Assembly (NCBI GenBank): GCA_044892505.1
Contig: CM097882.1
Location: forward strand, 499,596,001-499,660,000
DNA length: 64,000 bases
Direction of reading: 5' to 3'
DNA from: Schmidtea nova
Lineage: Eukaryota
The position numbers and the translations under genes are program-made. A model generated the notes under the pieces. It did no database searches. It had not been told where the DNA came from and worked only from the letters and a program-made list of their open reading frames with translations. Shown here piece after piece: positions 47,211-55,970 of the stretch; positions within the stretch are counted from its first letter, which is position 1; the number at the start of each line of letters is the position of its first letter.

Positions 47211-48486
47211 TGACCAAGTAGCGTGTTTGACATATATCCACATACATCTATGATTATCTATAACATAAATTGAACTGGATAAGTTCAATCTAACTAAAAA
47301 ATAATTTCAGAAAATATTCCCGAAAAATAGACACAGAAAATTATTAAATGGCAATTACATATTTCCAATTTATCAAAAAAACTTTTACTAAACAACACGA
47401 ATTTTCGACACTGTATTTTACAAGTGTCATTTTAATTTCCAATGACAATACAAAATCAAGTTATCAATAAATTATACTACTTTAAAAATGTACGAAAATT
47501 GATTTTTCCATTTTTAGGCTGGCTTTGACTTATCAAATGCTTTAGGCAGTATTCCGGATTCCTTTTTATTCGATGTATTATCTACTTATCCTAGCCGATC
47601 TAATCGAATTTTCCAATTGAAAGCAATGAATATGGTGGTCAAATTGTATCTAAAATGTTATAAGTTATTTGGTTTTTGATTTCAGAATCGGGGGAATAGC
47701 GAAACAAAATCTCAATCAAAAAAATTGTCTTTTTAAACTATTGGAAAGATGTTTTTTTTATAAAATACAATATCGTGTAGTATTTCTTTTCTGACCTCAC
47801 TGTGAGAGCTTTTATACTTTAACAATGCATACAAGTGTTTAAAAAGTCAATAATTTGTTTTAAACTTAAAATTCGGAGAACAAATAATTTAAAATAAGAT
47901 TTTGAAAAAAAACTAACTTTAAGTATTTTTCCACATTTAGAAAAAATTTTCTCTTCCAAAAATGACCATTTTAATGATGAAATTTGAAAGACATGGAAAG
48001 TTTTAGCAGATAATTAAAAAATTCAGCAATTCAATTTGGAGAAATTTTAAAATACTAGAATCCTTCATCGTAACAGGGAATCAGCAATTCTTACAATTAT
48101 TGACGAAATCGGGCGTGAAACGACAATAATTTTTGAAAATGTTCCACAACTTTCTTAGCATTGTTGAATGAAGTTAGATAAATCTGTTCTCAATATTATT
48201 TAAAAATATATTATCATACTCAAGAAGATTTTTTTAGTTTGCTTTTAAACTTTTTTTTTATTTGTTTAAAGCTACTTTATGCCTCTTCTTTATGCATATT
48301 TATAATATACTAAGTTATAATAAATAAGAAAATACTTGTGTTTATATAAGTTGTAAAGAAATAAATGCACGCTTGAATAAATGGAATCAGTGAAAAGAAA
48401 ATCCACGCTTGAAGAAATGAAAAATATTTCTTAAATAATAAAATTTTGTTATTCTTAATTACCTTGTATTTAAGAGTCGCGATAAT

Positions 48487-48499
48487 TGGTGTCAGAAGT
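48487..48499 (+). promoter_or_regulatory. Primer binding site
   Basis: TGGTGTCAGAAGT, 3 nt after the LTR-like sequence; complementary to the 3' end of a tRNA-Leu type (…ACTTCTGACACCA). Confidence 0.75.
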
Positions 48500-48759
48500 T
48501 TAACCTGTCAAACTTTTAGTTATTTGAAAGATCTCACTAATTCTGGTCAGTTTCCAAGTTATTAGCCGGATCCTTTCGTTTTATATTCCCTTACGTTGAA
48601 ACTCAGTTGTACTTGTCGTAGAAATTTGTTAATGGGTCATTAAAAAGTTGACGAGTTTACAAAATTAACGGAAAATATCCAATATCTTAATAAATTCCAC
48701 AGTCGAATCGAATTTCTTGTTTTGCTCAAATAATTTTGCTCAAACAATTACTTTTGTTG

Positions 48760-49257
48760 AAATTGATGTAAATAAATTCCCATTTTTTTGAAAAATGGGG
48801 TATTTCAAGCAAAGATTTAGATCGACCTAAAATTATAGCCATTGATTGGAAGAATGAGATCATTCACAATATAAAATCTGAAATCACCGAGCAATCAATG
48901 AATAATCTCCAATTAATCTTTGTCAATAACTTAACGTCTCATTTGAAATGCAATCACTATCCAATTCAATATTTAGTATCACATTCGAATTTTTATTCAA
49001 TTGATGTCGTGCAATTTGAACATGAGCGCGACGATCCAGAATTATTTGCAGAGTTGTTTTTAATAACCGGGCTGGTAATGAATGAAAATCTTACTTGGGT
49101 TGGATTGCATTGTAATCACGATTGGTCATATATTCTGAAAATTATAACCTGTGGAAAAGAAATGCCAGATAATTTTAAGGATTTTTCAGAATTTTGGCAA
49201 ATGTATTTCCAGAAAACAATAGATCTCAAAACATTAGCGTCAGAAGCTCGTGAATAG
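48760..49257 (+). pseudogene. CAF1: Divergent intronless CAF1/POP2 (CNOT7/8-type) deadenylase homologue, C-terminally truncated
   Basis: DPELFAELFLITGLVMNENLTWVGLHCNHDWSYILKIIT...DFSEFWQMYFQKTIDLKTL matches the CAF1 FAELLMTSGVV...KWLSFHSGYDFGYLIKILT...IYDVKYL segment. The frame is open upstream through KIIAIDW and NNLQLIFVN. Probable frameshift in a T7 run near 48783. Confidence 0.8.
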
Positions 49258-52600: not shown

Positions 52601-53530
52601 AAATGGTGTCAGAAGTTACTACCCCTCTCCATTAACATTTATATTTTATATTATTTTATTTCCACCTCTATTACTTTTTCTATCCCTTCCCAAATGAGGG
52701 CGCTACAACCCTGGGCGGGACTAACCGTATTGAAGATGCATAGAAGCCACATCATAAGACCAACCGGTTTTTTAAACATTGAGAAGACGCAAGTATCACA
52801 CAAGTTTCTCTTCCGGTGTCCTAACAAGACTTCCGGATGGCAACCTCTGTGTCCAACGAAGTCACAATTGACCTCAATGACTTCATTGCTCCTATCAATT
52901 GGTGTCCCAAGAGAAACGCACCGCCATTTTTTTGTCAGGAAGTCCCAATCTGCGGCACATACCCCAGTCATCATCACCTATTTCGACATCGTCCCTCGTT
53001 TGACTGGAGGAATGCAAACTGACGATACTAACACAGACTGCGAAATCAGCCACATTCAACCGCCAACACAACAAACAACACCAGTTATTACCCCAATACC
53101 GTTTTTCCTAGACGGCGTTGGCTCCCACAAACGTGGTTCCTGGCATTAGAAGTGACTCCAACTTTTCTACCCACTCAATCTCAAGGACAGAAGTTTGGTG
53201 CACTCTTGTCCATGCTTTATTGTCCAAGTATTATTAAATTTATTTGTAAGATTACATAAAATTAAAAGCGGGGAAACAAAATTAAATTGATGAATCGGCA
53301 ACCACACCAAAAATCACAATACCAGTAATACCAAATACAACATTCCAAAATCATACATTGGATCTCGATATTTGGTGTTCCTCTACATTTCATTACCGAT
53401 CAAGGACCCCAATTCGAATCCAATCTTTTTAAACAACTTTCTGCACAACTAGGAATTAAACACCTGAGGACTAGTACCTACCACCCACAAACAAACGGAG
53501 CTGTCGAGCGGTTTCACCGCACACTCAAGA
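49680..53530 (+). pseudogene. Decayed Gypsy gag-pol
   Basis: gag PSSWFHIIEA and KFLYALPYHIQ. Protease ILGVDFL. RT SFRPCSDFRALH, STIDLAKAF, AYLEDIF, KCQLFKPRIRFLGH. RNase H QTDDTN. Integrase FGVPLHFITDQGPQFES...YHPQTNGAVERFHRTLK. Confidence 0.9.
52106..52588 (+). repeat. Inverted, internally deleted copy of the ankyrin cassette inserted in pol
   Basis: 52106-52430 = reverse complement of 54821-55143. 52431-52589 = reverse complement of 53591-53749. Third partial copy at 53226-53323. TCCG lies on both sides (52102-52105, 52589-52592). Confidence 0.9.
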
Positions 53531-53546
53531 CATCCCTCCGAATTCT

Positions 53547-54629
53547 TTAAACTTCAAAGAACTGGACAAAGGCCCTATAAAAAGCCCTATAAATCACATC
53601 AAGGTATTCTGATTTTTGGTGTGGTTGCCGATTCATCAATTTTATTTTTGTTTCCCCGCTTTTAATTTTATGTAATCTTAAAAATAAATTTAATAATACT
53701 TCGTGGTGTTCCGGTGGCCGAAGTTTGTGTTGCTTGGCAACTGCATTTGTGTACGGGGAATTGAAACTGTGAATTGAACTCTCATTTTGAATTTGAACTA
53801 CTGGACTATATTTGGAAATATTTATTTTTAAAATACACAGAACGTTGTATTTATTTGGCTCCAGGGAACGTACGTCGTAAGAGATTTTATCAATATTATA
53901 GTTGCCTGTCACTTTAATGTCATTGTTTAATAATTCTAATGAGGTAAATTGGAGCGTATTGGAATATTTATTATGGAATAAGACCATACAGTTTATGGAA
54001 ATAGAATGTCTGTATATAAATATTGTTCTTTCCGGGGATAATTTCAATTGAGACAGACACTGGGGAGTCGTTGCAACATAGTATGATTTTATCGACAAGT
54101 ATTTATTATTATCATCATTACAAATGATACAATAATCATCTTCTTTATCAGTAAGCTGTTTGAAGAATGTTGTGAACACTGTATCACCAGCAGAATTGGA
54201 GGAACAGAAATCCTGGTGCACAAACGAAAATATGTCAATGAGGGTTCTATTGGTTGTTATTATCGACAGATAAAGTGGAGTACTGATGGGTATTTCGCAA
54301 TCATTAATTGAGATCAGATTGCGCATCAGAATATATCTTACCATTCCTTCCTCCCCATCGATGACGGCGATATGCAGCCGATTAGAACCTGCTTTATATT
54401 CAGTCTGCGAGAAGTCATTTCTCTTCTCTGATATTTGTCTAATTTCTCCCACTGCTTTAGATAAGTCATGTTGCTCCAATTTATAAACTTTTTTAACCAT
54501 CAAATCGAAAAATTTAATTCTATTTTCAATGGCAGAGATCTCCAAAAGTAAATGACCACTTTGTGCAGTGAAGTCATTAATTGCTTTAGCTGGACAATTA
54601 GTAGCAAAATATCGGGAAAAATTGGTCAA
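53547..54629 (-). CDS. Intronless 360-aa protein with 2-3 divergent ankyrin repeats
   Basis: Uninterrupted ORF. GSNRLHIAVIDGEEGMVRYIL, STPLYLSII and NSAGDTVF follow ankyrin consensus spacing. C-terminal half unidentified. Confidence 0.65.
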   Translation of the reverse strand: MTNFSRYFATNCPAKAINDFTAQSGHLLLEISAIENRIKFFDLMVKKVYKLEQHDLSKAVGEIRQISEKRNDFSQTEYKAGSNRLHIAVIDGEEGMVRYILMRNLISINDCEIPISTPLYLSIITTNRTLIDIFSFVHQDFCSSNSAGDTVFTTFFKQLTDKEDDYCIICNDDNNKYLSIKSYYVATTPQCLSQLKLSPERTIFIYRHSISINCMVLFHNKYSNTLQFTSLELLNNDIKVTGNYNIDKISYDVRSLEPNKYNVLCILKINISKYSPVVQIQNESSIHSFNSPYTNAVAKQHKLRPPEHHEVLLNLFLRLHKIKSGETKIKLMNRQPHQKSEYLDVIYRAFYRAFVQFFEV

Positions 54630-55970
54630 GTATTATTAAATAGTGAGACAAATAATATCAAGTAACTAATGATATATTATAAATAATATCAAGTAACTAA
54701 TAAAATTCGTAAGCGTTAACTAATATATTTTTAAAATTTATTGTGCGCGGTATCCGCTAACATATTTTTTAAACAACTTTTTACAACTCATACTTTAATT
54801 TATAAAAATAACAAAATATTCAGTATTACAAAATTTTTACATAGATAATTACACCACATTAAATATAAATAAGACAAGGCATTAAATGATTATAACATCT
54901 CTAATCAAAGTATATAATATTATTATCAACAAACATATTAATTTATTTAATCAAAATTAGTAATTATTAATTCAAACAGACACAACTAAACACATACAGT
55001 TAAAAAAATATCCAAACATTACTAACGAGAGCTATTATGGTGTATAAAATATACAATGAAACAACAAAATACATCGACATAATAATAAAAACTTTAAAAC
55101 ACTCTTTGATTGAATGGACATGATGTGACAACAGAACATTACATAATTAAAAGGCCCGATAATTAATCCTCTTACGCTTCATTCTGTCCCCATACGCTCC
55201 GCGTTCTTCGGCGGGGCTATTGGAGTGCCTCTACTTTATGCATATTTATAATAAGCTAAATATACTAAATTATTATAATATACTAAATTATAAGAAACTA
55301 GGCTTTATCCCGTATGTATAAGAAAATACTTTTGTAAGCTGTAAAAAAAATGCAATCTCGAATAAATGGAATTAGTGAAAAGAAAATGCTCGGTTTGAAG
55401 AGATAAAAACTATTTCTTAAATAATAAAATTTTGTTATTCTTAATTACCGTGTATTTAGGAGTCACGATTCTAAACAATTTGGTTAGATAAATTTAAGCA
55501 TTAATACTTATTACATACTATATTCACCAAAACTCAATTTTACGATTACTTGACAAATAATTTTGATTTCAATTGGCTTGATTGTGTAAAAATTGCAAGT
55601 GGACCTCAGTCACTAAATATAATGTAATGGAAGACTTATAGATAAAATGATGATATTAATGAGTTAATTTTGTTAACTTTTTTATAAAAAAATACAATAC
55701 TTCTTTAATTGTTTCTACATTAATTTAATTTGATTATTTTTCTAAGGGCGGATATAGGTTGCTGAAAGAACTCTAGAGAAAGGTATTAGATATAATATCA
55801 TAAATGCAAACACAATTGTTCAAATTTTGAAAATTATAAAAACATGACTCAATCCACTATGAAAATAAAAGGCTCATATTATTACCCGATTTATTGAGCT
55901 GCAGTAAGCGTATCAAAAGTTATTTTAATTAATCAACAAAAACTGGATAAATAATTTATTAATAACAACG

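Follow-up and report, generated by a model that had tools for sequence, protein, structure and literature searches.

Related systems

Tan et al. 2016 (PMC5131818) describe LTR-mediated retroposition, with chimeras of several genes inside LTR elements. The present locus resembles those cases in having partial coding pieces from more than one host gene, joined at a short common sequence, with discontinuous LTR-element sequence on either side. It differs in being an old, decayed copy whose chimera occupies the leader and takes the place of no recognisable ORF, and in that no target-site duplication (TSD) was found. The CsRn1 clade of Ty3/Gypsy elements (CsRn1, PwRn1 and AgCR) is characterized by a gag CX2HX9CX3C signature and a tRNA-Trp primer-binding site (PBS) (PMC2582038). 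Shared with this clade are an imperfect CX2HX9CX3C gag signature, the PR-RT-IN order and, in a repeat designated B (copy 1), a TGT start, an AAA end before a PBS-like motif and a 4-base duplication around a shared core. Differences are a PBS that is not of the Trp type, the lack of RNase H, HHCC region and GPY/F tail, and LTR-like copies about 88% identical whereas those of the clade exceed 97% (PMC2582038).

Ankyrin repeats in a Gypsy context are found in the planarian giant element Burro; as described in PMC6431247, they belong there to a sense polyprotein of 4,900 aa in a 30-kb element, whereas the frame at the present locus is antisense, stands alone and belongs to a repeat of 1.55 kb. Finally, bdelloid rotifer LTR elements carry an ORF3 for a DEDDy exonuclease (PMC5408684), the likeness being a DEDD-superfamily nuclease sequence inside an LTR element; those ORF3s are common to families, whereas the present case is a 5'-placed half-gene without the catalytic motif. 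No CAF1 cargo in LTR elements is reported in the titles and abstract openings listed in searches of openly available papers.

Composition of the locus

The locus is best read as a long-dead retrotransposon together with broken bits of two host genes and a separate repeat of younger age that holds an ankyrin-like frame, and is therefore mostly ordinary genome debris. It was described in a preliminary way as an LTR-bounded Gypsy region carrying deadenylase and ankyrin cargo genes; that description is partly confirmed, since the parts it named were mostly found and the architecture differs. The window, i.e. the whole stretch of DNA analysed, is 64 kb long. The features are:

48281..48483, + strand: repeat A copy 1 (A1), LTR-like, 24% GC, AATAAA at 48437, ragged 5' end
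48487..48499, + strand: PBS-like 13-mer TGGTGTCAGAAGT, 3 bases past the A1 end
48521..49036, + strand: thioredoxin-domain (PDI-like) host-gene piece, broken, P0009 aa 390-571 in three frames with 2 stops
49030..49365, + strand: CAF1/CNOT7, C-terminal half only, P0007 aa about 200-311 (E 7e-39)
49692..50450, + strand: decayed gag region, imperfect CX2HX9CX3C signature at 50393-50446
51054..52105, + strand: protease region followed by reverse transcriptase, with 2 stops and two changes of frame
52106..52589, + strand: short form of repeat B (copy 1), beginning with TGT, TCCG on either side
52604..52616, + strand: another exact match to the PBS-like 13-mer
52617..53225, + strand: segment X, where RNase H and the integrase N-terminus would be; 44% GC, C-rich, gag-pol-like composition
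53226..53323, + strand: repeat B copy 3 (98-nt fragment), 96-97% identity to the other copies
53335..53577, + strand: core of integrase alone, with 1 stop; identity to five relatives 64-70%
53547..54632, - strand: ankyrin-like frame, open over 361 codons between stops, with its first ATG at codon 44
53591..55143, - strand: inverted long form of repeat B (copy 2), with the two ends of copy 1 and an additional 1068 bases (53751-54818)
55223..55469/55477, + strand: repeat A copy 2 (A2), LTR-like, AATAAA at 55423

A second copy of the cargo-bearing arrangement was not identified within the 64-kb window, and the exact sequences of three window proteins were absent from the protein collection looked up.

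The gag-pol remnant and its ends

The core of the element is a pol with 63-69% identity to five of the six RT-RH-IN polyproteins found. Protease region, reverse transcriptase and integrase core keep their collinear order, and a gag-like signature precedes them; of the gag-PR-RT-RH-IN series first described, RNase H was not recovered, and gag-pol is discontinuous, being interrupted by repeat B. The same relatives show no alignment from about 52150 to 53335, where RNase H would be, and the N-terminus (HHCC region) and tail (GPY/F) of integrase are absent as well; with these losses, this Gypsy pol is dead. The YxDD motif of the reverse transcriptase reads YLED and no protease D[TS]G was identified within 50950-51100. 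Of 198 columns that are invariant in five intact relatives, 34 are altered in the pol pieces (3-5% in the relatives themselves). In gag, three of the four signature residues are correctly spaced, the third Cys is missing and there is an internal stop; none of 2000 shuffles matches this pattern, which was picked after inspection, and Pfam gave no gag family.

Segment X is overlapped by an open frame (52430-53149) and has no match in Pfam or PDB. Its reading as a degenerate RNase H or integrase N-terminus was rejected (174 of 200 shuffles score equally). By eye, X looks collinear with a related element over its leader and the first part of gag, but the alignment is equalled by 80 of 200 and 60 of 200 DNA shuffles and by 180 of 300 protein shuffles. 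A pol C-terminus before A2 was also rejected (137-991 of 1000 shuffles), and continuation of integrase directly past B copy 2 is weak, being equalled by 14, 42, 45 and 232 of 500 shuffles in four of the five relatives, the fifth having no anchor motif.

The LTR-like copies were recovered as direct repeats, and the many substitutions and indels first noted between them were borne out: the alignment of A1 and A2 contains 179 identities, 24 mismatches in 203 sites and 44 gap columns (about 88% identity). The common TSD that was to be sought in this alignment was not found, the only candidates being two 4-mers away from the TG/CA ends; with the ragged 5' end of A1, paired LTRs with TG...CA ends and a common TSD were not obtained. 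Repeat A has 24% GC vs 44% in gag-pol. A2 adjoins integrase without a tail and without a good polypurine tract (7 purines among the last 15 bases), and is followed by a degenerate PBS-like stretch that 1-15 of 3000 random segments equal in score, a post hoc comparison. Repeat A and PBS as upstream coding sequence of the thioredoxin-domain gene were rejected, with 235 of 300 and 212 of 300 shuffles scoring equally.

The 13-mer TGGTGTCAGAAGT has two exact matches in the window and occurs in none of 100 shuffles. Its presence at 48487, reported before as a tRNA-Leu PBS, stands; the Leu type is presumed, and the 64-kb window contains no tRNA gene. The second match, at 52604, had been overlooked; it may be a genuine PBS that follows an LTR with an AAA end, or else a chance occurrence within 13 codons like a post-RT pol stretch. 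For a tRNA-Trp PBS four matches with at most 2 mismatches were identified in the window, which is chance level, with none in 48-56 kb and none near gag.

A rough conversion gives decay clocks of about 0.059 substitutions per site in pol and 0.064 in each LTR copy. Because they agree, A1, PBS, host chimera, gag, pol and A2 may be a single old insertion with captured host sequence; the order LTR-PBS-leader-gag-pol-LTR, spanning 7.2 kb, is correct for one element.

Host sequence in the leader

The sense frame first described as a CAF1-like ORF is a chimera of 845 bp between PBS and gag leader, in which two broken host-gene pieces are joined. Homology to CAF1 was confirmed (CNOT7, E 1.4e-12) but a CAF1 gene was not, the 5' half being the thioredoxin-domain piece and only the C-terminal part CAF1. 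The former matches P0009 in tblastn (E 1.8e-31, 42-44% identity) and phmmer (E 6.3e-14) and stops short of the WCxxC motif. The latter shares 73 of 102 residues with P0007, and a separate protein-level search of this part gave E 2.9e-32 for the same protein. CAF1 is a DEDD-superfamily nuclease; its catalytic N-terminal DTE motif (the first catalytic acids) is absent along with that gene half, and a search for the N-half upstream of the chimera gave no match (58 of 200 shuffles score equally). The remaining half contains an in-frame stop at 49255, a 5-residue deletion and a degenerate HQAGSD motif without the final Asp. The chimera cannot give rise to a deadenylase.

The junction falls on an Asp-Pro present in both parents (49033-49038), the parents being proteins of other genomes and not the parental DNA. 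With A1 and PBS on the left and the gag leader on the right, the flanks are discontinuous LTR-element sequence, provided that repeat A is the element's own LTR. The nearby PRP6 gene has no introns over 2.8 kb, and the missing introns of the chimera are therefore not diagnostic. PRP6 scores 1053 bits against the human protein and 230 against that of yeast, which marks the source as an animal, perhaps a flatworm.

Of 31 conserved columns that P0007 retains, 8 are changed in the CAF1 half (Fisher p 0.32 vs pol), counted over the first 40 of 83 motif-bearing, length-filtered matches among the 150 matches listed. At a stricter cut-off of 85% this half differs at 13 of 32 columns vs 6 of 30 for P0007, and so may predate pol. 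On these column counts the CAF1 piece is as decayed as the dead pol and may be older. Among the 150 matches listed a single one exceeds 45% identity, an ordinary full-length CAF1, and therefore no family of element-borne relatives is seen; none of the 13 matches of at least 500 aa in the same set contains retroelement Pfam domains. A word-index homology search of the CAF1-like and ankyrin-like frames gave no matches at E 0.001.

Repeat B and the ankyrin-like frame

Repeat B comprises three copies of 96-99.7% identity, one inverted, that interrupt pol. The preliminary description had passed over these copies and the position of the ankyrin frame within the inverted one. Copies 1 and 2 differ at 1 of 325 nt and 2 of 160 nt, and repeat B appears much younger than the surrounding element. 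Its junctions contain short tandem duplications or templated repeats, with a 4-base duplication, and the copies lie more than 9 kb from the nearest of the 7 N gaps in the window. Repeat B would be mobile.

The antisense ORF at 53547-54632 was confirmed as a frame, and the matches point weakly to the ankyrin identity first given to it: Pfam Ank_2 reaches 14 bits vs a cut-off of 27.3 (E 0.076), the best DARPin match has E 7e-6, and Atlas gives 0.94 with 10 of the 10 best named matches ankyrin, recognition being below the Atlas threshold. A single-sequence fold model has a pLDDT of 35, and phage and plasmid records gave no match. The frame lies within the inverted copy, extends past repeat B into antisense integrase and has an acceptor-like sequence near its start. 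The chance of its remaining open is 3e-10, and 0.008-0.018 at the disruption rate of its neighbours. In copy 1, too, this frame is open, over 239 codons (the chance being about 0.02 in the part in common and 1e-4 in the rest). With the ankyrin frame intact and all its surroundings decayed, the layers therefore differ in age.

Repeat B might also be a young mobile unit, perhaps the LTR of a Gypsy family that is Leu-primed and inserts time and again into related pol genes, its long form encoding an intact ankyrin protein within the LTR, possibly fused to the gag leader. The TGT start and the AAA end before a PBS are the features cited for an LTR, and in a 5' copy the ankyrin frame would run across the PBS into the leader. 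This is considered quite improbable.

Origin of the locus

The best reading is of layers that differ in age, none of them contributing working cargo: an old CsRn1-like insertion, a non-functional host chimera in its leader and the later repeat B. As a whole this composite is held to be probable, by a modest measure. The oldest layer would be a CsRn1-like Ty3/Gypsy copy, with homology and decay both evident, probably bounded by A1 and A2, inserted once and dead since integration. In the next, an internal piece of a thioredoxin-domain gene and the back half of CAF1 were most likely joined by template switching of the reverse transcriptase, a known process, between co-packaged RNAs at a short common sequence, and the chimera would then have decayed with the element. 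The youngest is repeat B, with three copies with common ends and presumed mobility, whose copies would have broken pol at three places, with loss of RNase H and both integrase ends. Against this composite are the lack of a TSD joining A1 and A2, the presumed Leu-type PBS vs Trp in CsRn1-like elements, the PBS-like stretch past A2, the integrase abutted without tail or good polypurine tract, a junction microhomology deduced from proteins of other genomes, and a CAF1 half that may predate pol. The alternative first offered, a one-off pile-up of insertions, fits. In its pure form A1 and A2 would be separate LTR or LTR-PBS remnants of a Leu-primed family unrelated to gag-pol, and the chimera would have entered as DNA (break repair with templated pieces) and not by reverse transcription. 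This is unlikely, although it accounts for the missing TSD, the mismatch between PBS type and CsRn1-like gag signature, the GC difference (24% vs 44%), the PBS-like sequence past A2, the short tandem duplications at the B junctions and a different AT-rich Gypsy remnant directly upstream (about 46050-47150); the agreeing decay clocks of LTR and pol and the 7.2-kb order fitting one element speak against it.

An artefact of assembly or amplification is a somewhat more doubtful explanation, in which collapsed repeats led to B copy 1, segment X, B copy 3, integrase and B copy 2 being mis-joined or used to fill a gap, and the ankyrin frame is not physically in the element. It draws on the 7 N gaps, on three other local duplicates of 95-99% (one inverted) at most 12 bases from gaps, and on a block of about 1.2 kb replacing about 1.1 kb of missing RNase H and integrase N-terminus. 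However, the B copies are more than 9 kb from any gap and differ at few bases, and their 4-base duplication and short templated junction repeats look biological, as we infer. An active Gypsy family that carries both a working CAF1 deadenylase homologue and an ankyrin protein as a means of modulating its host, as proposed at first, is highly improbable and already contradicted at the present locus. Both homologies are real, and Gypsy elements with DEDDy exonuclease ORFs (PMC5408684) and with ankyrin repeats (Burro; PMC6431247) exist. Nevertheless, the CAF1 is a half gene without DTE, with a stop inside, fused to an unrelated piece and decayed like pol; the ankyrin frame lies within a separate young repeat; and the only one of the 150 matches listed above 45% identity is ordinary full-length CAF1.

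Significance

As it stands the locus has little significance, being one more decayed LTR insertion. It illustrates that a chimeric pseudogene can be mistaken for a captured enzyme, and it is possibly a neat example of two host genes stitched together within a retroelement leader. If repeat B were a multicopy element with a conserved and expressed ankyrin ORF in its LTR, it would represent a new cargo placement beside the Burro polyproteins.

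Outer repeats and primer-like site

The Gypsy region lies between two LTR-like copies of a repeat, A1 and A2, and is followed by a splicing-factor gene:

48281-48483, repeat A copy 1 (A1), direct pair with A2
51054-52106, protease region and RT; pol relatives align, with two frame changes
53226-53323, third piece of repeat B, 98 bases
53335-53577, integrase core; pol relatives align
55223-55469, repeat A copy 2 (A2), direct pair with A1
55971-58757 (-), PRP6 splicing-factor gene, intronless, 928 aa, apparently intact

Both copies carry AATAAA near the 3' end and, as the preliminary description stated, they differ by substitutions and indels (179 identities, 24 mismatches, 44 gap columns). 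A shared target-site duplication, which it proposed to look for, was not found at TG/CA ends, and the polypurine tract before A2 is poor (purines at 7 of the last 15 bases). A1 and A2 are not established as the LTR pair of one element. The 13-mer TGGTGTCAGAAGT was identified at 48487 (+), just after A1, and again at 52604, with a match in 0/100 shuffles; we take it for a putative tRNA-Leu primer site, the type named in the preliminary description. Likeness to this site and its flank occurs in the 14-20 bases after A2 (equalled by 1 to 15 of 3000 random segments in a post hoc test) and ends beyond them (271 and 425 of 3000). Leu primer sites are given for Mag and Mdg3 elements in the available text of PMC3286476.

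The thioredoxin/CAF1 chimera

The host pieces stand between the 13-mer and the gag leader. The CAF1 homology first reported here is confirmed (CNOT7 E 1.4e-12) and limited to residues 78-193 of the read-through frame; the supposed CAF1 gene is a chimera of thioredoxin-domain and CAF1 pieces. Among 514 matches to this frame in 1.84 billion proteins, the best was P0007, a full-length CAF1 of the ordinary kind (residues 61-194, 65% identity), and the third best P0009, a thioredoxin-domain protein of 809 aa (residues 5-96). Searched back, P0009 aa 390-574 was spread over three frames of 48521-49068 (E 1.8e-31), while P0007 aa 191-311 covered 49000-49365 (E 7e-39), the switch point being 49033-49038, Asp-Pro in both parents. 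The CAF1 N-terminal half, where the DTE motif sits (P0007 aa 110), is absent upstream (58 of 200 shuffles equalled the score). The half that remains is interrupted by a stop at 49255 and has lost 5 residues; its HQAGSD motif is degenerate, the final Asp being gone, and it cannot encode a deadenylase. No retroelement domain was identified in the 13 matches of at least 500 aa among the 150 matches listed.

Extra ORFs known in Gypsy elements include the DEDDy exonucleases of rotifers (PMC5408684, in part), and ankyrin repeats occur in planarian Burro polyproteins (PMC6431247, in part). In the portions of the literature retrieved, no source evidently reports CAF1 in LTR elements. Intact CAF1 is absent from this locus too, which resembles an LTR-mediated chimeric retrocopy that has decayed and was later hit by other insertions.

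The gag-pol remnant and its age

Six pol relatives were found, five of them at 63-69% identity. They align to the protease region and RT (active site YLED) and to the integrase core, and to nothing between 52106 and 53335 or after 53577; when RNase H and the N-terminus and tail of integrase were each sought by a dedicated test, the scores stayed at chance level. Of the gag-PR-RT-RH-IN series proposed before, the protease region, RT and integrase core stand in order; RNase H and both integrase ends are absent. For gag there is a Cys/His motif at 50393 with 3 of the 4 residues of CX2HX9CX3C, the signature of CsRn1-like elements in the available part of PMC2582038; a Trp primer site, as used by that clade, was looked for and is absent, and membership is not established. 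This gag-pol is incomplete and dead. About 1.1 kb upstream of A1, at about 46050-47150 (+), lies another Gypsy RT remnant, which is AT-rich and, with 27-43% identity to the pol relatives, belongs to a different lineage.

In the pol pieces 34 of 198 columns invariant among the five intact relatives are changed, each relative itself differing at 3-5% of columns. Of 31 conserved columns that P0007 also keeps, the CAF1 half is changed at 8 (Fisher p 0.32 vs pol); with a stricter cut-off, 13 of 32 are changed vs 6 of 30 in P0007. Roughly converted, pol has accumulated 0.059 substitutions per site and each LTR copy 0.064, values that favour one old insertion. Disruptions number 5 in 427 codons of pol and 5 in about 280 of the host pieces.

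Repeat B and the ankyrin-like frame

Repeat B, not mentioned in the preliminary description, interrupts pol in three copies that are 96-99.7% identical. The short form is copy 1; copy 2, inverted, shares both its ends and has 1068 bases more, in which most of the ankyrin-like frame lies. The inverted pair comprises 52106-52430 vs 54819-55143 (1 difference in 325) and 52430-52589 vs 53591-53750 (2 in 160). Identical four bases flank copy 1 on both sides, and its next 13 codons are like the post-RT stretch of the relatives (equalled by 9, 17, 26, 26 and 81 of 2000 random segments). Both findings suggest that copy 1 simply inserted and that the second 13-mer occurs in pol by chance. Alternatively, it may extend to 52603, its TGT...AAA ends, as in CsRn1-like LTRs (PMC2582038, in part), directly preceding a real primer site; a second element would then have its leader in the segment at 52617-53225, but homology of this segment to such a leader was not above shuffles.

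The antisense ankyrin-like frame (53547-54632) is open over 361 codons, and codes now or did so recently, because DNA this rich in AT would keep the part found in copy 2 alone open by chance with a probability of 3e-10. Evidence for the ankyrin assignment is consistent but weak. A word-index homology search and phage and plasmid records gave no relatives, and the fold model is unusable (pLDDT 35). Since there is no ATG before codon 44 and acceptor-like sequence lies near the start, the frame may be a captured exon. It would remain open at the pol and host-piece disruption rates with a probability of 0.008-0.018; taken with the near identity of the B copies, this shows clearly that the ankyrin layer is younger or selected, and therefore not cargo inherited along with the old element.

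Genomic setting

The window, AT-rich and of animal origin, is part of a draft assembly with gaps (7 N runs) and is dense with transposon remnants. The PRP6 gene has 46% GC vs a background of roughly 28%, and scores 1053 bits against human PRP6 and 230 against the yeast protein. Inverted repeats at 640-1275 and 14513-15137 (637 bases, 95% identical, 13 kb between) are either TIRs or inverted LTR copies; between them are Gypsy-like frames at 3750-4163 and 5271-5672, identified by eye and unmatched in Pfam. Two 16-base tandem arrays, inverted relative to each other, at about 2114-2294 and 2795-2966, look like the subterminal repeats that a small DNA transposon carries. Further elements are a GIY-YIG endonuclease frame at 17140-17604 (+), presumably Penelope-like, what remains of a hAT transposase, including its BED zinc finger, at 39798-41263 (-) and another hAT-type transposase, broken, at 61558-63848 (-), in which DUF4371 and dimerisation domains are recognised. 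A complex array at about 36860-38140 (14/28-base units, with longer periods near 140, 208 and 348 bases) contains an open frame of 261 codons. A short exon-like stretch at about 43540-43640 (+), with a weak peptidase M48 match (E 0.05), lies upstream of the Gypsy region and may be a host exon. Several local duplicates at 17766-20565 (93-99% identical, one inverted) abut N gaps and look like assembly redundancy.

Origin of the locus

The chimera, the decay, the missing domains and the three B copies are observed directly, and we consider it somewhat probable that they arose as follows. An old Gypsy copy would have gained the chimera in its leader through template switching among co-packaged RNAs, a process described in animals (PMC5131818, in part); this copy would then have integrated and decayed, and repeat B would later have broken pol three times, with deletions. 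Unrelated LTR remnants, with the host chimera pasted in at the DNA level, are an unlikely source. An assembly mis-join creating the B block is slightly less likely again; in its favour, other near-identical duplicates in the window adjoin gaps, and against it, repeat B is >9 kb from any gap. A functional cargo family, the headline of the preliminary description, is very hard to sustain with a CAF1 half that carries a stop and lacks the DTE half, and with an ankyrin layer younger or selected. That the intact ankyrin-like frame of repeat B is itself an LTR-encoded cargo protein seems improbable; repeat B with this frame is the remaining lead at the locus.
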